In this document: positions 19,337 to 59,677 of the stretch, piece after piece | Numbering within the stretch: position 1 is the first letter of the stretch | Layout: the number at the start of each line of letters is the position of its first letter | Source: Escherichia phage CMS-2020a | Reading direction: 5' to 3' (one strand) | Length of the DNA: 64,000 nt | Sequence record: CP053388.1 | Notes under the pieces: generated by a model | The model's input: the letters and a program-made list of their open reading frames with translations, nothing else | Database searches by the model: none | What the model was told of the DNA's origin: nothing | Made by a program: the position numbers and the translations under genes

Positions 19337-19654
19337 TTACTTTGCCCCTTCGCCAGCCGCTTTTTCGTTTTCTTCATCAATCACTTCCATAGCGAAGGTG
19401 AAGATCTGCTGGAGTTGCGGAACAGTCAGTTTTTCAAGAACTTCGTCAGGTACTGAAGGGATAACCTTACGAACCAGATCTGCATAAGCTGTCACTTGCT
19501 CAACAGGAGACATGTTCATGAGATCTTTGCCTTCCATCTGCTTGATGGAAACGAACAGACCTACCGTCATTTCAACGATGGGATATTCCTGACCGCCAAA
19601 TTTGATGCTTTTCTTCGGAGGCAGAATGGAATCGAGATCGAGTAATTTGGTCAT
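19337..19654 (-). CDS. tail assembly chaperone (lambda G-like)
   Basis: 105-aa acidic protein between major tail and tape measure genes. Confidence 0.6.
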   Translation of the reverse strand: MTKLLDLDSILPPKKSIKFGGQEYPIVEMTVGLFVSIKQMEGKDLMNMSPVEQVTAYADLVRKVIPSVPDEVLEKLTVPQLQQIFTFAMEVIDEENEKAAGEGAK

Positions 19655-19709: not shown

Positions 19710-20456
19710 TTAATCTGCGGGGTTAATCGTTACTGACTTAGTTGCCTTCTTACCACCGCTATTGCTGGTGAAGGAGATATTTGTAGAACCCTGCGCCACA
19801 CCACGTACCAGACCCGTTTGATCTACCGTGGCCTTTTTCTGGTCTTCGGATTCCCAAACACCGGTTTTGTCTGCGGCATCAGCTGGAGTAATTTCGACTG
19901 TCAGTTGCACAGTCTCCCCTGCTTTTACAGTTGGAGATTCCTGTTTGATCGACACGGTTTTTACCGGTTTAGGACCGCTCATTTTGCCCAGAACGCCTTC
20001 ATCATCCGGGTATGCGCTGAACTGAACAGAGAACACACGAACATCATCAGACTGGTAGGTCATAGTGAAGTTGCCCGCGGTTGCCGCTTTCGGGATGGTC
20101 AACACATAGTCGGTGGTGTCCTGCGGAGTCAGAACCAGCTCCTTCGCCACATCAATCAGGTTAACGCCCTGTGCAGATGTGATCGTGACAGAGCTGTCAT
20201 CTTCGCTCAGAGTAGAACCAGGCATCAGGTCAACCATGTTTTGGAGTACAGACTCAGCCAGAGGCGCGGTGATGGTAATGTTGCGCCCCTGAACTAATTC
20301 GGAAATTACGGTCTGCCCCAACTGATCGACGGTGACTTTCAGCGTTTCAGTGGCTACTTCAACCTGAACACCACCTTTGGTGTAACCCAAATCCACACCA
20401 CCAAACGACACCTTACAGGCACCAAGTTTGATGTTTTTTACATGGGTATTAGACAT
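19710..20456 (-). CDS. major tail protein with C-terminal Ig-like (Big_2) domain
   Basis: Start ATG at 20456 with AAGGAG RBS; C-terminal Big_2-type repeat. Confidence 0.75.
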   Translation of the reverse strand: MSNTHVKNIKLGACKVSFGGVDLGYTKGGVQVEVATETLKVTVDQLGQTVISELVQGRNITITAPLAESVLQNMVDLMPGSTLSEDDSSVTITSAQGVNLIDVAKELVLTPQDTTDYVLTIPKAATAGNFTMTYQSDDVRVFSVQFSAYPDDEGVLGKMSGPKPVKTVSIKQESPTVKAGETVQLTVEITPADAADKTGVWESEDQKKATVDQTGLVRGVAQGSTNISFTSNSGGKKATKSVTINPAD

Positions 20457-20504
20457 TGATGGAAAACTCCTTTTTCCGTTAATTCTACGCATTCATTGCG
20501 CTAA

Positions 20505-25919: not shown

Positions 25920-27494
25920 TCACTCGTTCTCTTGAGTAGATGAGTCCCCATTCCCTCGGGGTTGATCTTGCCCGCTTTCTTGGGCTGCACCACGATAATA
26001 AGTAAGTACTGACTTATTTTCAAGGGTATTTAGATCATTTTTTGGAGGAAAATTCAAGAGATCTTTATCAAATTCCTTTTTCATCGCCTCAGTAATGTTC
26101 GGGAAAATCTTCTCAATAAGCATTTCCATCTGGTGACGACGTACAGAGTCCGGTGCCTGAAGTAATGACAGTTTCTCGGCAACAGAAAATTCATCAGTAA
26201 GGCCACGAATATCGAAACTTTCTGGATACGCAATTAAAGAGTGGTCTTCGTCCAGATCTGCCCCCATCCATTTCGCAACCAGTAGCATGATTTGGCGTTC
26301 AGCCCTTTCCAGACGCTCTGCTTTTGTGACAAGCAAGCTATTTACACGCTGGAAGTCATACATTTTTGCGGCACCAGATGAATTATCGATTCCCTGTGCG
26401 TTGTCCTGCTTCGTTCGCTCACCAGCTACACCAACTGAATGGTAGATTTCGTTAATCACCGTCTTAATCGTAGTGATGATCATCTGAGCTTGTTTCGGGT
26501 CTGGTGACAGATAAAACGGCTGGTTTCCACCTTCAGAATCGTAGGTGAAGACTCGCTTTGTGCCCATTTCAAGCACTTTAGTGTGGTTTTCATCACCAGG
26601 TAAAAGCGACTGTACCGGTATAGCCAACTGGCTAAATGTCTGATCCTGAATAATGGCATCAAGGTTTGACAGATAGTTTGCAACCGCACGATCAAGATAA
26701 GCGATATCATCGATCAACGATGGGCTGAAATACGGTGATTCACTTTCTCCAATACAATCAACAGGAAACACAGGAACTACGCCGAGATTATGCTCACCGC
26801 TATCCTCTAAAATAACTTTTGCCTGACGGCGACCTGCTCCACCAGCGCCCTTCTTCACTTCCTCACGGAACAGATACCACTCGTTTTGTGTCCACAGACG
26901 ATAACGTTGGTATTCCTGACCTGTAGAAGTAAAAGGATCTGCGTCATCACGAGCGACTTCCACAATTAACGCCCACAACATATTCCCGTCGTCGTCCCAT
27001 GCCACATCCAGCATTTGCTGAGGTGAAATCCAGTAGGCGTAGGCGCGAGCATCTTTCTTTTTCTCGTCAGCTACTGACTCAACATCACCACTCATCGTGC
27101 TATCGACAACAACCCATATGCGACCGTAAATAGACGACTGCAAATCAATAGCGGCCATAAATGAGTCAATAGAGGCATTCTGGCGAGTCGCACGTTTCCA
27201 GAAATTGCGGATCTGCTCTGGTGCCTCTTCGATATTTCTATGAATGTCTTCTTTAAAGAGATATTTGTTGATGAGGTTTACCACCTCACGAGTGTGGTTG
27301 AAGCGATAAGCACGTTCAACTCGCTCCTTAAACTCCTGATCTCCCTCTTTAAAGTAACGAAAGATATTGTCTGTAAACCAACCACGCCCGCCAGCGTAAG
27401 TGCTGGCGAGGAAGTCCCAATGTTCTTTTTTCTTTTCGTATTCCGGGTGGCGTCGCGCCACCAGATCCTTAATTTGTTTGTCGTTCAATTCCAT
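25920..27494 (-). CDS. portal protein
   Basis: 524 aa, immediately downstream of terminase large subunit. Confidence 0.75.
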   Translation of the reverse strand: MELNDKQIKDLVARRHPEYEKKKEHWDFLASTYAGGRGWFTDNIFRYFKEGDQEFKERVERAYRFNHTREVVNLINKYLFKEDIHRNIEEAPEQIRNFWKRATRQNASIDSFMAAIDLQSSIYGRIWVVVDSTMSGDVESVADEKKKDARAYAYWISPQQMLDVAWDDDGNMLWALIVEVARDDADPFTSTGQEYQRYRLWTQNEWYLFREEVKKGAGGAGRRQAKVILEDSGEHNLGVVPVFPVDCIGESESPYFSPSLIDDIAYLDRAVANYLSNLDAIIQDQTFSQLAIPVQSLLPGDENHTKVLEMGTKRVFTYDSEGGNQPFYLSPDPKQAQMIITTIKTVINEIYHSVGVAGERTKQDNAQGIDNSSGAAKMYDFQRVNSLLVTKAERLERAERQIMLLVAKWMGADLDEDHSLIAYPESFDIRGLTDEFSVAEKLSLLQAPDSVRRHQMEMLIEKIFPNITEAMKKEFDKDLLNFPPKNDLNTLENKSVLTYYRGAAQESGQDQPRGNGDSSTQENE

Positions 27495-27505
27495 TTGAAT
27501 AACCT

Positions 27506-27528
27506 TAGATAACTACTTACCTATCGAG
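27506..27528. promoter_or_regulatory. motif B palindrome
   Basis: tagataactacttacctatcgag between terL and portal genes. Confidence 0.5.
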
Positions 27529-28777
27529 AACCACCAAGAATAACACGGTTTTTGACTGGATACCTACGATGTACTGGATAGCCCAATGCGTCTGCACTAT
27601 GCTCAATGCCACCTGTCTTATCCATATCTCGTGTTCCAGGCTTGTAGATGACTTTTTCCAGTGAATCAATCAAATGCTTGCACTTCGGATCGATATACAG
27701 CCGGATATCTCCAGATGCGGACATCAGCATTCGGTTAACAGCATTAACACGATCCGCAATTGGCGGGTGCTTTTTCGAATAATCGACACGTAAGAATCCC
27801 TTCTCTTTGAATATGTCTACGTCAGACTCCCCACGAGCATGTTGGCGATAAGCACCTGCCGGATCTGGAAATACCGTTACCTGTGATTTCCAGCGCCAGA
27901 AGCGTCTCTCAAGCTCATCACAAACTTCTGCCGTGTTAGAGGAAAAGAGCACCAATTCATCAATTGCCCATAGCTCACCATTTGGCTGAGGTTGCAAAAT
28001 TACTGAAGACATCGGGTCAATGTTGAAGTCCTGCCCTACCCATATAGGCAACCGAGGGTTGAACTGAAGCGGTTTTACATGCACGTTACGATCGAACGGG
28101 TAGTAAACGCGCCCGGACATGTTCTCAAAGCTGGCCAGGTACTCCTGAGCGAACGATTTGGGGTCCATATCGTTCTTAGCAGCTTCAATTTCCGCCGTAG
28201 GTACAAACGGAGAATCGGCAGTTACAAACTGCCAGCTCTTCCACTGTCCCTTTCTTTGCAGCTCTACGTTCTGGCCTATCGTCCACAGTTTGTGAAATTC
28301 CGAGAAGCCTTTTGGCGTACCAATGATCAGTGCACCGCCGCGTGTCGATGAAAGAGTAGGTCGTAACACCTTGTACCAGGTGTCAGCCTTCATATCCTGA
28401 AATTCATCAAGCACTACAAAATGCAACGCTACGCCGCGCAGAGTGTCAGGCTTATCAGCACCTTTGAGGGCGATCTCCGAACCGTTCTTCAACACGATTG
28501 TCATCGTGGTGTCGTTCTTTTTCCTAACCCACTTACGAGGCAGAACTTCCTGTAGATCGTCCCACAAAATCTGGCGAGCCATCTGGTAAGTAGGAGCGAC
28601 ATACCAGACCCTTTGCTTTTTTTCCTTTGCCGCCGCACGAATAATAGTGGAGATCGACAACCGGGATTTTCCCCAGCGTCGACCAGCACAAACAACTTTA
28701 AATCGATGCGGAGACTGGAAGACTTTCATCTGTCCAGAATGCAGTTGCACAAGACTGAGCGAGGACGGGATTGCCAT
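27521..28777 (-). CDS. terminase large subunit
   Basis: Walker A-like CAGRRWGKS, Walker B VVLDEF, C-terminal nuclease-type Asp motifs (DFNIDP, DPAG). Confidence 0.85.
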   Translation of the reverse strand: MAIPSSLSLVQLHSGQMKVFQSPHRFKVVCAGRRWGKSRLSISTIIRAAAKEKKQRVWYVAPTYQMARQILWDDLQEVLPRKWVRKKNDTTMTIVLKNGSEIALKGADKPDTLRGVALHFVVLDEFQDMKADTWYKVLRPTLSSTRGGALIIGTPKGFSEFHKLWTIGQNVELQRKGQWKSWQFVTADSPFVPTAEIEAAKNDMDPKSFAQEYLASFENMSGRVYYPFDRNVHVKPLQFNPRLPIWVGQDFNIDPMSSVILQPQPNGELWAIDELVLFSSNTAEVCDELERRFWRWKSQVTVFPDPAGAYRQHARGESDVDIFKEKGFLRVDYSKKHPPIADRVNAVNRMLMSASGDIRLYIDPKCKHLIDSLEKVIYKPGTRDMDKTGGIEHSADALGYPVHRRYPVKNRVILGGSR

Positions 28778-29409
28778 TATTCGTCCTCCCCTTCACTTCC
28801 ATCATCTGTCGCATCAAATTCGCTTAGAGCTTCTTCTTCCAACGTCTCAAGCAATTCGTCATCGATGATTTCAGGCTCGTCGTCTTCCTGACGTAATTTC
28901 GCCACCTGGGAAGGCGTAAGCTCACCAAATACCAGGTTCGGAATTTCTTCCTCGTCATTTTCCGCATGATCCATGCCCAATGCTTTGGACGAAACTTCAA
29001 AGCATTTTGCAAGGGTATTACTGGCTCTCTGTAAGCTCTTGAGAGAATCCTCAATCGCCCCTAAAGGCTTACCCTCACGTTTGGCCGTAGTGACTTCGAC
29101 CATCACCATCTGCCCCAACGCATACGCCCAGCCGTCATAACGTGTACGACGTTCTTCTATCTTTTCCGCACGGGCTTTAGCGCGAAGCTCTGCGTCAGAT
29201 TTAAGAGACTCACGAACCATCTTCCCAACAGAGTCCGCGCCTTTCTCTAATCCTCGCTTTTTGAAATGTCTGGAGAGTGTTTCACGACGAATGCCGTACT
29301 CTTCCTCCAGCTTTGAGAGTGTATATTCGCCTGACGTCCATTTGGCTTCAGCTTCGGCCCACTCCGCTGGTGTCAGGCGAGTTTTTACCTCGTCTTTTTC
29401 GACCGTCAT
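28777..29409 (-). CDS. terminase small subunit (putative, HTH plus acidic tail)
   Basis: N-terminal HTH-like region, acidic C-terminus, immediately upstream of terL. Confidence 0.6.
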   Translation of the reverse strand: MTVEKDEVKTRLTPAEWAEAEAKWTSGEYTLSKLEEEYGIRRETLSRHFKKRGLEKGADSVGKMVRESLKSDAELRAKARAEKIEERRTRYDGWAYALGQMVMVEVTTAKREGKPLGAIEDSLKSLQRASNTLAKCFEVSSKALGMDHAENDEEEIPNLVFGELTPSQVAKLRQEDDEPEIIDDELLETLEEEALSEFDATDDGSEGEDE

Positions 29410-29418
29410 AGATCCCTC

Positions 29419-29450
29419 TAAAACACACAGAGCGCGTCCATGCGCTCTAA
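29419..29450 (-). terminator. hairpin plus U-tract in terS leader (candidate regulated terminator)
   Basis: Minus strand reads AGAGCGCATGGACGCGCTCT followed by GTGTGTTTT, then GAGGG RBS and terS ATG. Confidence 0.5.
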
Positions 29451-29492
29451 AACAACTTGTTTACTGCATCTGCTAACCAACTTGTTTTCTGG
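29448..29492. promoter_or_regulatory. two copies of motif A (AAACAAnTTGTTT palindrome) upstream of terS
   Basis: aaaacaacttgtttac and aaccaacttgttttctgg. Confidence 0.55.
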
Positions 29493-29525
29493 GGTGTTTA
29501 ATTAGGTCTGGCATGTCTTACGAAG

Positions 29526-29580
29526 CCTGCTTCCGTATATATTTAATAAGTTACTTATTATTTATATATACAGAAGCAGG
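29526..29580. repeat. 55-bp near-palindrome, copy 1
   Basis: cctgcttccgtatatat ... atatatacagaagcagg arms with central AATAAGTtACTTATT palindrome; copy 2 at 59621-59677. Confidence 0.8.
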
Positions 29581-29604
29581 TCTTTAAATAAGCTCCCAGA
29601 CCGA

Positions 29605-29871
29605 TTACATCACCAGTAACTTCGCTTTGGCTCGACCTAAAGTAGTTAACCCAAGAGTTCGGCGGTGATAGCGATTGTCACTGCGTTGGCGCGTATGCCC
29701 TTTCTCCACCAGCCCCTTTTTTATCAGAGCGCGAATTGAGAACTGGATACTTTGCTTGGTTGTCTTGTACGGCAAAACTTCAAGCAATTCGTCCAGGTCA
29801 AGTAGATGACCTCGCTCATAACCGAGATTGAGCGTTTTGATGATGTCCTTTTGTTTATCGGTTAACGTCAT
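29605..29871 (-). CDS. small winged-helix DNA-binding protein (putative regulator)
   Basis: 88 aa; helix-turn-helix-like segment and basic C-terminus. Confidence 0.45.
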   Translation of the reverse strand: MTLTDKQKDIIKTLNLGYERGHLLDLDELLEVLPYKTTKQSIQFSIRALIKKGLVEKGHTRQRSDNRYHRRTLGLTTLGRAKAKLLVM

Positions 29872-31031: not shown

Positions 31032-31662
31032 ATTCCACCTTCACGCGTTCTTTGTAGTGCTTGGTGATCTGCATATCCGGGCGCAGCGCGTTCTTCAGGT
31101 CTTCGTGAGTCGTCGCCACCATTACCGTCGCACCAACCTTTCGAGCGGCACGCTGGAGGTTAGATGCCACAACCTGAGCGGTTACACGGTCGAGAACAGC
31201 GCCGAACTCGTCAGCAGCCCACACTTTAGCGCCTGACTCAATCAGTTTGGCAATCTTGAGACGATATTTCTGACCGTCTGACATTTCAGAAGGCTTGCGA
31301 ACAAACAGATATGCATCGTTCAGACCAGCCATAGATAACAACCCAAGCGCATCACTGGTAGTTTTGCCCAGTTGGTCAATGACGTTAACCTCATTATCGA
31401 AGGTAAAATCATCGATGGAGGCCACAGATAGCCCTTCATCCTTCATCTGGTGTTGCAGCTCGCGCAGCACAACGGATTTGCCGGAACCGGATTGGCCGGT
31501 AATGTACACCACATCGCCCTGCTTCACTTCCAGCTCCAGATTGTCGTAAAGCGTCCACTCTTTTTCGTCCAGGCCAAGCCCGAACGACTCAGCGATTTCC
31601 AACGTGCGCGTGGTTTTATTTACGCGTGTCTGAAACGATACGTTGATGATGTATTTGCTCAT
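31024..31662 (-). CDS. stand-alone ABC-type ATPase
   Basis: Walker A GQSGSGKS, signature-like MSDGQKYRL, Walker B VWAADE, H-loop TTHE. Confidence 0.7.
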   Translation of the reverse strand: MSKYIINVSFQTRVNKTTRTLEIAESFGLGLDEKEWTLYDNLELEVKQGDVVYITGQSGSGKSVVLRELQHQMKDEGLSVASIDDFTFDNEVNVIDQLGKTTSDALGLLSMAGLNDAYLFVRKPSEMSDGQKYRLKIAKLIESGAKVWAADEFGAVLDRVTAQVVASNLQRAARKVGATVMVATTHEDLKNALRPDMQITKHYKERVKVEYA

Positions 31663-38800: not shown

Positions 38801-38821
38801 GATTAATTCCTTATCGTAAAT

Positions 38822-38842
38822 AACAAATTGTTTTCTTGTTGG
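38822..38842. promoter_or_regulatory. motif A
   Basis: aacaaattgttttcttgttgg about 20 nt upstream of ATG. Confidence 0.55.
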
Positions 38843-39582: not shown

Positions 39583-39600
39583 GAAAACAAATTGTTATCG
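39583..39600. promoter_or_regulatory. motif A
   Basis: gaaaacaaattgttatcg. Confidence 0.5.
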
Positions 39601-40486: not shown

Positions 40487-40509
40487 TAAACAACTTGTTT
40501 TCTCAATGG
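40487..40509. promoter_or_regulatory. motif A
   Basis: taaacaacttgttttctcaatgg. Confidence 0.55.
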
Positions 40510-40971: not shown

Positions 40972-40993
40972 AAACATGTTGTTTTCTTGATGG
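40972..40993. promoter_or_regulatory. motif A
   Basis: aaacatgttgttttcttgatgg. Confidence 0.55.
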
Positions 40994-43604: not shown

Positions 43605-43629
43605 AAAACAAGTTGTTTTCTTATGTGGC
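43605..43629. promoter_or_regulatory. motif A
   Basis: aaaacaagttgttttcttatgtggc. Confidence 0.6.
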
Positions 43630-43646
43630 TTATTATCTCAATCAAC

Positions 43647-43675
43647 AAAAGGTAGAAAACAAATTGTTTTAGGGC
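43647..43675. promoter_or_regulatory. motif A variant
   Basis: aaaaggtagaaaacaaattgttttagggc; candidate -10 GATAAT lies between the two copies. Confidence 0.5.
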
Positions 43676-47082: not shown

Positions 47083-47472
47083 CTACATCACGGGACAATC
47101 ATCAAACTCGCCACTTCTTGCGTCGTTGATAATGTGAGTGATCACACCAAACACGGCATTGCTGCCCGTGCATCCATCGTCATCCTTTGGCAATGCTTCC
47201 TTCTTACCGGTTCTTAAATCCTCCAGATGCTGACGTGGGTACTTCCGGTATCTTTTTACGCGATATTCCCCATCCAGAGCGCATACAAGCAGAGAACCAT
47301 CAACCGGGGTAAGTGAGGAATCGACCACCAGCAATGCACCCTGTAATATTCCCTCACGATGATGACTATCAGCTGCCCTCATGAAGTAGGTCGCTGAAGG
47401 ATGTCTAATTATCTGCTGATCAAGAGAAATACGGCTCTCAACATAATCCGCCGCAGGAGAAGGGAAGCCCAT
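47083..47472 (-). CDS. UmuD'-like S24 peptidase-family protein (N-terminally pre-truncated, HumD-like)
   Basis: GFPSPAADYVESRISLDQQIIRHPSATYF aligns with UmuD from its autocleavage-site region onward; no umuC. Confidence 0.85.
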   Translation of the reverse strand: MGFPSPAADYVESRISLDQQIIRHPSATYFMRAADSHHREGILQGALLVVDSSLTPVDGSLLVCALDGEYRVKRYRKYPRQHLEDLRTGKKEALPKDDDGCTGSNAVFGVITHIINDARSGEFDDCPVM

Positions 47473-51920: not shown

Positions 51921-51948
51921 GAAAAGGTAGAAAACAATTTATTTAAGG
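51921..51948. promoter_or_regulatory. motif A variant
   Basis: gaaaaggtagaaaacaatttatttaagg. Confidence 0.45.
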
Positions 51949-56468: not shown

Positions 56469-56493
56469 TTAAACAAGTTGTTTTCTTATTGGC
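56469..56493. promoter_or_regulatory. motif A
   Basis: ttaaacaagttgttttcttattggc. Confidence 0.6.
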
Positions 56494-57197: not shown

Positions 57198-57220
57198 CAA
57201 AACAAGTTGTTTTCTAATTA
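57198..57220. promoter_or_regulatory. motif A
   Basis: caaaacaagttgttttctaatta. Confidence 0.6.
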
Positions 57221-59620: not shown

Positions 59621-59677
59621 GCCTGCTTCCGTATATTAATAATTAATATGTAGTTATTTATATATACAGAAGCAGGC
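59621..59677. repeat. 55-bp near-palindrome, copy 2
   Basis: gcctgcttccgtatat ... atatacagaagcaggc. Confidence 0.8.

Follow-up and report, generated by a model that had tools for sequence, protein, structure and literature searches.

A 64,000-nt stretch of DNA (record CP053388.1; "the window" means this whole stretch throughout) was analysed around the start of the late operon of an SSU5/pHCM2/pMT1-type phage-plasmid. The 5′ leader of this operon carries a small stem-loop directly before terS, the putative small terminase gene. Judging from its substitutions across relatives, the stem-loop is a genuine, selected RNA structure, and as an intrinsic terminator it is weak. Tentatively, and with somewhat less than even confidence, we read the conserved leader RNA as a leaky post-initiation gate on terS. 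It would be a weak attenuator that derives from an ancestral terS-proximal terminator, and a palindrome-bearing promoter would be the place of on/off control.

Architecture of the terS leader

A preliminary description of this DNA had proposed a terminator-like hairpin on the minus strand, between two copies of a "motif A" and the terS ribosome-binding site. The hairpin is present as described, and the sequence that follows it and the Shine-Dalgarno (SD) sequence were also found where that description had put them. On the minus strand the order is AAACAAGUUGUUU-UAGAGCGC-AUGGAC-GCGCUCUG-UGUGUUUU-AGAGGGA-UCU-AUG. The stem-loop occupies positions 29428..29449, with the 5′ arm UAGAGCGC at 29449-29442, the loop AUGGAC at 29441-29436 and the 3′ arm GCGCUCUG at 29435-29428. 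Its stem has eight pairs, five of them G-C, with a U·G closing pair, and the hairpin alone has a folding energy of -12.4 kcal/mol. Such a stable GC-rich stem with a short (6-nt) loop is what an intrinsic terminator has. Immediately 3′ of the stem lies the tail UGUGUUUU (29420..29427, minus strand; six U in 8 nt, tail score T=3.40). The hairpin sits 9 nt upstream of the SD sequence AGAGGGA (29413..29419, minus strand). A GGA in the loop (29439-29437) is followed 24 nt further 3′ by a second GGA in the SD sequence (29415-29413), and the ATG at 29409-29407 opens the 210-aa terS reading frame.

The bare terminator-like pattern is unremarkable, and it is conservation that makes the hairpin real. 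A consensus scan found 10 terminator-like sites in 9 kb, compared with 9.1 ± 2.8 in shuffled sequences, so the pattern alone is at chance level. The folding z-score of the 101-nt leader was only -1.84. No second copy of the hairpin was found in the window with a covariance model (R1), whose remaining matches stem from the palindrome part of the model. Rfam, searched at E≤10 for the region and at the gathering threshold for the whole window, gave nothing relevant, only chance-level matches of microRNA models on an AT-rich palindrome. The hairpin is uncatalogued, of an ordinary kind of cis-regulatory leader hairpin, and of modest interest.

Conservation of the stem

The comparison set comprised 93 related terS leaders, which gave 37 distinct upstream regions and 14 distinct hairpin segments. 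Absence from close relatives, which the preliminary description had named as the outcome that would speak against the hairpin, was not what we saw: the hairpin was kept in 93 of 93 leaders, although the U-run is absent from one clade (Klebsiella-B). The hairpin reads AGAGCGC-AUGGAC-GCGCUCU in the E. coli clade, GGAGCGC-AAGGAU-GCGCUCU in the pHCM2/pMT1/Enterobacter clade, AGAGCGC-AAGGAA-GCGCUCU in Klebsiella-A and GGCGUC-AGGAA-GAUGCC in the distant Klebsiella-B clade (terS 53-61% identical). Changes within clades include a G-C to A-U double change (leaders L045 and L071), as well as A-U to G·U and C-G to U·G.

MAFFT and covariance-model alignments shifted the Klebsiella-B 5′ arm by one register (5-nt versus 6-nt loop), so the automatic pair count understates pairing. 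Despite this shift, 83% of the cells were paired in the automatic count, and covariation exceeded that of all 500 shuffles and of every slid control. The final pair table was registered by hand for Klebsiella-B. In it, the six inner pairs were formed in 81 of 84 distinct-sequence cells, four pairs were altered on both sides, and 15 cells were G·U or U·G, a pairing possible in the sense-strand RNA alone. Klebsiella-B has retained its stem through four compensatory pair changes, without a U-run. Pairing kept through compensatory and G·U changes indicates a selected sense-strand RNA structure.

Terminator quality and distant counterparts

The tail UGUGUUUU passes a lenient consensus scan, yet its U-tract is interrupted. 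On a terminator score d (d'Aubenton-Carafa 1990 / Lesnik 2001), calibrated only within the Cyrano genome, the terS-leader hairpin reached -0.7 and ranked 79th of 103 hairpins, compared with 25-58 for canonical Cyrano terminators, in which a T-run directly follows the stem.

Distant terS homologues (24-49% identity) were collected by protein searches. In five distant lineages, a hairpin with a U-run ends 18-28 nt before the terS start, the same geometry as in the window (18 nt). These terminators scored +7.2 in Aeromonas caviae, +24.7 and +0.8 in two Acinetobacter plasmid types, +23.9 in Pseudomonas phage nickie and +11.5 in Pseudomonas phage hairong. No hairpin plus U-run was found before terS in Providencia, K. 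oxytoca, one Rhizobium phage and one Stenotrophomonas phage. Given the canonical terminators at the same spot in five distant lineages, the placing of a terminator close to terS is an old theme, of which the enterobacterial hairpin looks like a weakened, degenerate descendant. The idea of a terminator in the late-operon leader, as put forward in the preliminary description, therefore holds in part: hairpin and position stand, and the distant terminators, as read from their sequences, support it more than the window sequence alone, whose own terminator is borderline.

Compared with ordinary enterobacterial and phage intrinsic terminators or leader attenuators, the terS-leader hairpin has the usual GC-rich stem of 7-8 bp, a loop of 4-6 nt, a U-rich 3′ flank and, as in leader attenuators, a place in the 5′ leader just before the SD sequence. 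It differs in that the U-tract is interrupted (UGUGUUUU) or offset (GAGUGUUUU), that the stem covaries even in a clade without a U-run, and that the loop sequence is conserved, whereas ordinary terminators need no fixed loop.

Palindromes and promoter context

The "motif A" of the preliminary description proved to be a 13-bp palindrome, AAACAAsTTGTTT. Copy 2 (AAACAAGTTGTTT, 29450..29462) adjoins the hairpin. Copy 1 (AAACAAGTTGGTT, 29475..29487, one mismatch) lies in the canonical context ..TAATTAAACACCCCAGAAAACAAGTTGG common to other promoters, and is absent from the Klebsiella clades. RNA pairing between the two copies was considered and rejected, as it is not conserved, the Klebsiella clades having one copy. 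With at most one mismatch, the motif occurs at 18 sites in the Cyrano genome, compared with 0.57 in shuffled sequences. Besides the two leader copies, the window sites are 38821-38833, 39585-39597, 40488-40500, 40972-40984, 43606-43618, 43657-43669, 51932-51944, 56471-56483 and 57200-57212. Nearly every site precedes a start codon by 15-35 nt and has the context (G)ATAAT-N10-AAGAAAACAAsTTGTTT, and the motif stands before parA, a helicase gene, cobT, RNR-beta, about eight small genes and terS. Most sites are just downstream of a GATAAT-like -10 element, and a few instead overlap a -35 position right after a terminator. The palindrome and promoter context of the terS leader is thus common to about 12 other transcription units. 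No copy lies within the late operon. This shared context, together with the absence of sites inside the operon, points to control at initiation. Because parA is well expressed in lysogens, the motif is not a simple operator for lysogenic shut-off.

From the alignment of contexts, a -10-like element (CCTAATTAAAC, 29496..29506, minus strand) was placed at the position that GATAAT has at other palindrome-bearing promoters. It reads CCTAAT/TAATTA, a poor match, and no recognisable -35 element accompanies it, so the region looks like an activator-dependent promoter. The hairpin follows this promoter-like region, which the 13-bp palindromes flank, at a distance of a few tens of nucleotides.

One short operator-like sequence at many promoter regions of a plasmid-prophage recalls phage-plasmid P1, in which immunity relies on the C1 repressor and many scattered operators. 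Unlike the P1 operators, the SSU5-type motif is a perfect palindrome of 13 bp that lies just downstream of the -10 element. It is also found at the promoter of the well-expressed parA gene and directly at that of the late operon.

A larger, AT-rich palindrome of 55 bp (CCTGCTTC...GAAGCAGG, 29526..29580) lies between the upstream gene and the promoter-like region. Each Cyrano genome has three copies, all about 25 nt after a stop codon and two of the three followed by a T-run; the other two are at 59622-59676 of the window and at Cyrano position 31160 (outside the window). The K. oxytoca homologue is followed by U6. By its placement and sequence, the 55-bp palindrome likely closes the upstream unit (ParB-like genes, an ABC ATPase and an 88-aa protein) as a terminator with a long stem, or as an insulator. 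We considered the small hairpin unlikely to be the main terminator of the upstream operon, for which the large palindrome is better placed, with the promoter-like region between the two. The SSU5 and Cyrano GenBank records begin and end inside the terS-proximal copy of the 55-bp palindrome (window ~29543/29544), about 10 nt from its centre; this origin may be arbitrary, or it may be a physical end. Weak copies of the 55-bp palindrome are also present on unrelated E. coli and E. albertii plasmids.

Transcript levels in Cyrano

Expression was taken from the RNA sequencing (RNA-seq) data for E. coli LF82 carrying Cyrano (PMC9928086, S1 Table), as per-gene log2(FPKM+5) in the most induced condition, where FPKM is fragments per kilobase per million. 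A search of the SSU5/pHCM2 transcriptome literature turned up these per-gene data alone. Values were 3.6 for CYRAN_122, 6.6 for CYRAN_123, 5.2 for terS, 4.1 for terL, 7.6 for the capsid gene, 4.6 for the gene after it, 8.4 for the major tail gene, 7.6 for CYRAN_13 and 5.1 for CYRAN_14. From CYRAN_123 to terS, RNA fell 2.5-5-fold. RNA of CYRAN_123 rose earlier and higher than that of terS, independently of the preceding gene.

Within the late operon, a strong canonical terminator (GGGUGGGC-UAUAC-GCCCACCC-UUUUUG, 24075-24055, minus strand, score 47) lies directly after the major capsid gene. Past it, RNA was about 8-fold lower in LF82. This terminator either sets capsid stoichiometry or must be read through. 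The RNA-seq data are steady-state values, mostly from uninduced lysogens, and are therefore suggestive only. As such, they fit leaky gates and ordinary intra-operon termination better than terminator-resistant transcription.

The upstream 88-aa protein

Directly upstream of the leader, the homologue of CYRAN_123 (29605..29871, minus strand; phrog_900) encodes a predicted winged-helix protein of 88 aa. It had a weak Pfam match to LexA_DNA_bind (E=0.072). The AlphaFold2 (AF2) model, with a predicted local distance difference test (pLDDT) score of 72.5, shows a helix-turn-helix (HTH) plus wing, and the top PDB matches in Foldseek were LexA DNA-binding domains (probability 0.99, E 0.14). Neither a Pfam Q-family match at E≤0.1 nor a Q-like fold was found for this protein by Pfam, PDB sequence search, AF2 and Foldseek. 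We therefore rejected a Q-like antiterminator identity, the modelled fold being a LexA-type winged helix; the protein is a plausible candidate for a late regulator.

An apparent "split LexA" was also observed, in that this LexA-DNA-binding-like protein is accompanied by a separate S24-only protein (47083-47472, minus strand). The latter has 129 aa and the peptidase domain only (Pfam E=1.5e-9, from profile position 8), and in lysogens its gene ranks with the most strongly expressed ones of Cyrano (7-12 log2 units).

A proposed leaky gate on terS

We infer partial termination at the hairpin and control at initiation. With its 8-bp stem and interrupted U-tract, the hairpin would be weak as an intrinsic terminator, or would cause a pause. 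It would trim, and not switch, the transcription that enters terS, whether this began in the leader or had read through the large palindromic terminator 80 nt upstream. The on/off state of the late genes would be set at the palindrome-bearing promoter, for which the 88-aa winged-helix protein, an HTH repressor and the S24 protein are candidate regulators, and no lambda Q-type antiterminator would be needed. The score of the window hairpin, far below those of canonical Cyrano terminators, is consistent with leaky termination. The drop past the capsid-gene terminator is not what fully terminator-resistant, Q-modified transcription would give.

A number of observations weigh against this reading. 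The score d was calibrated only within one genome. In the pHCM2 clade, the tail is degraded or offset to GAGUGUUUU and scores fall to -12 to -27, and Klebsiella-A scores range from -6 to -25. Klebsiella-B has no U-run (0-2 U in 8 nt) while its stem is still kept, and the K. oxytoca and Providencia leaders also have none. With negative scores, and with the U-run lost where the Klebsiella-B stem is kept, termination cannot be the whole conserved function. Moreover, a sigma-70 scan of 29400-29650 found no consensus promoter, and the promoter and transcription start of the terS leader are placed by sequence context. Across a sister hairpin of the same design before CYRAN_13, with a better U-run, RNA fell only about 1.7-fold in vivo. 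Finally, per-gene RNA-seq cannot tell apart the contributions of the small hairpin, the large palindrome and a separate promoter. Since pairing persists in leaders that have lost the U-run, the hairpin must, in addition, do something at the ribosome-binding region for which no U-run is needed.

Possible translational control by CsrA

Such a role would be given by a CsrA-type two-site translational operator, an explanation that we consider possible but doubtful and that is drawn by analogy. Here, the A(N)GGA of the loop and the GGA of the SD sequence would be bridged by a dimer of host CsrA, or of an analogous RNA-binding protein. Translation of terS would be repressed and late development tied to host physiology, with any terminator activity incidental, as at the T1 terminator upstream of cel in plasmid ColE7.

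The loop GGA is invariant in 14 of 14 distinct leaders from four clades (loops AUGGAC, AAGGAU, AAGGAA and AGGAA), while the stem varies. The SD sequence AGAGGGA is likewise invariant in 14 of 14, and the GGA-GGA spacing is 23-26 nt in every clade. The distance over which a CsrA dimer bridges two sites is 10-63 nt, and the optimum is above 18 nt (PMC7652899). Sites selected by SELEX, in which ligands are evolved systematically by exponential enrichment, have the consensus RUACARGGAUGU in hairpins mostly of ≤4 bp, and very stable structure may disfavour binding (PMC7652899). In the pHCM2 clade, the loop with its closing pair, C-AAGGAU-G, is an exact match to the SELEX hexaloop ARGGAU with a C-G closure. 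Similarly, CAGGAAG in the Klebsiella-B terS hairpin, and CAGGAUG or CAGGAAG in a tail-block hairpin, equal the CsrB repeat CAGGA(U/A/C)G (consensus from PMC7652899). The CsrA explanation also accounts for a hairpin kept where the U-run was lost. In K. oxytoca (L103, plasmid CP056499), the GC hairpin is absent, and about 45 nt upstream of terS the palindrome reads AAACA-GGA-TGTTT. As RNA, AAACA-GGA-UGUUU would pair over 5 bp and present GGA as its loop, which makes it a near-perfect site of the CsrA type, and two more GGA precede the start codon. In Providencia terS, the loop AAGGAA is the SD sequence itself.

The closest known system is that of the SOS-induced plasmid ColE7, in which CsrA binds to the SD sequence of cel, a lysis gene, as well as to the loop of the terminator stem-loop T1 (Yang et al. 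2010, PMC2896534). The terS leader resembles it in having a terminator-type stem-loop directly before a gene, with one GGA in the loop and a second in the SD sequence of that gene, on an extrachromosomal E. coli element that is inducible by SOS/DNA damage: Cyrano forms virions and is induced 39-fold by ciprofloxacin (PMC9928086). It differs in what lies downstream, namely the opening gene of a phage late operon and not a colicin lysis gene, and CsrA binding is putative here.

Several points count against CsrA. The terS-leader stem is long and stable (7-8 bp) compared with the SELEX hairpins, and the window loop AUGGAC departs from ARGGAU at two of six positions, a poorer match than the AAGGAU of the pHCM2 clade. 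The distant same-position terminators mostly have no GGA in the loop. The composite of GGA-loop hairpin, GGA-containing SD sequence and start codon was no rarer than in shuffled sequences, so its statistical rarity is not used as evidence, and GGA-loop hairpins are only mildly enriched genome-wide (30 versus about 21). A tblastn search with the E. coli CsrA sequence found no phage-encoded CsrA homologue in Cyrano or the window.

The sister hairpin, AGAGGCUC-AGGAU-GGGCCUCU-CUUUU (19696-19676, minus strand), lies between the major tail gene (19710..20492) and the gene at 19337..19654. An SD sequence AAAGGA follows 21 nt after its loop GGA. Its stem covaries between lineages (GGCUC/GAGCC, GGCCC/GGGCC, GGGUC/GACCC, GGGUUC/GAACCC), and the loop has GGA in five of seven lineages; the other two have AUGAU and AUGAC, which again counts against CsrA. 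Of the sense-strand GGA-loop hairpins in Cyrano, 11 of 16 are within the 28-kb late region.

Stable hairpins with AAGGAU or AGGA loops were also observed at three other gene junctions of the late operon (7084-7062, 13995-13973 and 14386-14368, all minus strand). One precedes the tail-fibre gene and is followed by the SD sequence AAGGAG, the loop AGGA of another is the SD sequence of a minor-tail gene, and the loop of the third holds the start codon of the next gene.

More broadly, by the same analogy, host CsrA (Csr/Rsm) might gate translation of the terminase and other late genes throughout the SSU5/pHCM2/pMT1 family by means of GGA-loop hairpins about 24 nt before GGA-containing SD sequences, at the terS leader and, as sister hairpins, at tail-gene junctions; this we likewise hold to be doubtful.

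Other explanations

A generic RNA role, with neither termination nor a specific protein, is unlikely. The hairpin could stabilise or process the late mRNA on its 5′ side, act as a pause that couples ribosome loading to transcription, or offer an SD-like "standby" loop that raises the local ribosome concentration. This would agree with pairing conserved independently of the U-run and with the similar SD-like-loop hairpins at the late-operon junctions (19696-19676, 14386-14368, 13995-13973 and 7084-7062); for one of these junctions, as for terS of Providencia, the SD sequence itself forms the loop. It would also agree with RNA accumulating for the genes just upstream of strong hairpins (capsid, major tail, CYRAN_123). 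However, 5′ stabilisers are usually at the extreme 5′ end, and at least 17 nt precede the hairpin in the transcript that we propose. A generic role explains the invariant GGA and the fixed SD spacing no better than CsrA does, and leaves the distant canonical terminators at the same place unexplained.

Improbable to a similar degree is a module like lambda pR′-tR′, the arrangement that the preliminary description had favoured. The leader promoter would fire, the hairpin would stop the transcripts, and a phage antiterminator, either the 88-aa winged-helix protein or an unrecognised factor or RNA, would open the 29-kb late operon. The gene order does mimic Q-pR′-tR′, since a small DNA-binding protein gene, a promoter region, a terminator-like hairpin and the first late gene follow one another. 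As in lambda, with its pR′, 6S RNA leader, tR′ and Q, a small regulator gene, promoter and short leader precede a long late operon with internal terminators. The strong capsid-gene terminator (d=47) and others inside the operon must be passed, and the earlier and higher rise of CYRAN_123 RNA fits as well. In the five distant lineages with canonical terminators, no room is left for a promoter downstream of them, so that read-through is obligatory there.

For a Q module, the terminator between promoter and first late gene should be efficient. The position fits, but the predicted efficiency is low: d is -0.7 in the window and lower in the sister clades, and the U-run is lost in Klebsiella-B. With low or negative scores in the enterobacterial relatives and this loss, a tight lambda tR′-like terminator is not what is conserved. 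Unlike lambda tR′, the terS-leader hairpin has an interrupted U-tract and a borderline score, and unlike in lambda, no consensus sigma-70 promoter was found at the leader (29400-29650) and no pause element was recognisable. The first late gene is terS here, and the lysis cassette in lambda. A search for Q-like or RNA-based antiterminators, as the preliminary description had suggested, found no Q/N/RinA-type antiterminator annotated in Cyrano and no Rfam match in the window. No Q-family protein was found; upstream there is the 88-aa protein of LexA type. The roughly 8-fold drop after the capsid-gene terminator speaks against transcription being terminator-resistant, but unequal RNA stability is another possible cause of this drop. 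What stands of the proposed late-leader arrangement is a hairpin downstream of a promoter-like region with motif A palindromes; the analogy to a tight lambda tR′-type terminator that needs an antiterminator is not supported.

A DNA-level site, i.e. the inverted repeat AGAGCGC-N6-GCGCTCT as a protein-binding palindrome or as part of a packaging (pac/cos) region, is very improbable: packaging sites often lie close to terS or at it, the first position of the SSU5 and Cyrano records falls in the large palindrome, 134 nt upstream of terS, and the leader is dense in dyad symmetries, but we rejected it mainly because the 15 G·U/U·G cells pair in the sense RNA only and break the DNA dyad symmetry, and also because Klebsiella-B has wholly replaced the half-site sequence with pairing kept, while a literature search found nothing on cohesive ends of SSU5.

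The phage-plasmid and its relatives

The putative terS gene (28777..29409, minus strand; phrog_867) is annotated as "Terminase small subunit" in Cyrano and opens the late operon, which is roughly 29 kb long. The terS stop codon overlaps the start of terL (27521..28777, minus strand; phrog_2/10250), which is followed by the portal gene (25920..27494, minus strand); capsid, tail and lysis genes lie downstream on the same strand. In the leader region, identity is 100% with E. coli plasmid NZ_CP031136 and 99% with phages CMS-2020a and Cyrano, and the expert-annotated Cyrano genome is 98-100% identical to the window around the leader. Among the relatives of the element are Salmonella phage SSU5, pHCM2 of S. 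Typhi, pMT1 of Y. pestis and many plasmids from Klebsiella, Enterobacter and Citrobacter. Of 5,426 complete E. coli genomes, 226-259 have the same leader on plasmids, and it was found in 830 PLSDB plasmids, among them pHCM2 (S. Typhi) and pMT1 (Y. pestis). A terS gene of the pHCM2 clade (87% identical) with an identical leader was also observed on a 29.6-kb contig tagged "MAG: Bacillota bacterium" (L012, JAEWTL010000044.1), which is almost certainly a mis-binned enterobacterial phage-plasmid.

Significance for the phage-plasmid family

The SSU5/pHCM2/pMT1 phage-plasmids are very common, and their regulation has so far been essentially uncharacterised. The hairpin itself is a useful annotation, and would be no surprise unless the link to CsrA or a new antitermination factor were confirmed. 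If the CsrA link were true, lytic development of these plasmid-prophages would be coupled to the carbon or stress status of the host, as for the ColE7 lysis gene. The start of the late operon, with its packaging, virion and lysis genes, is now localised. Its leader joins a genome-wide palindromic, operator-like sequence to a conserved RNA hairpin, and so offers an entry point to how virion genes are silenced and switched on in plasmid-prophages.

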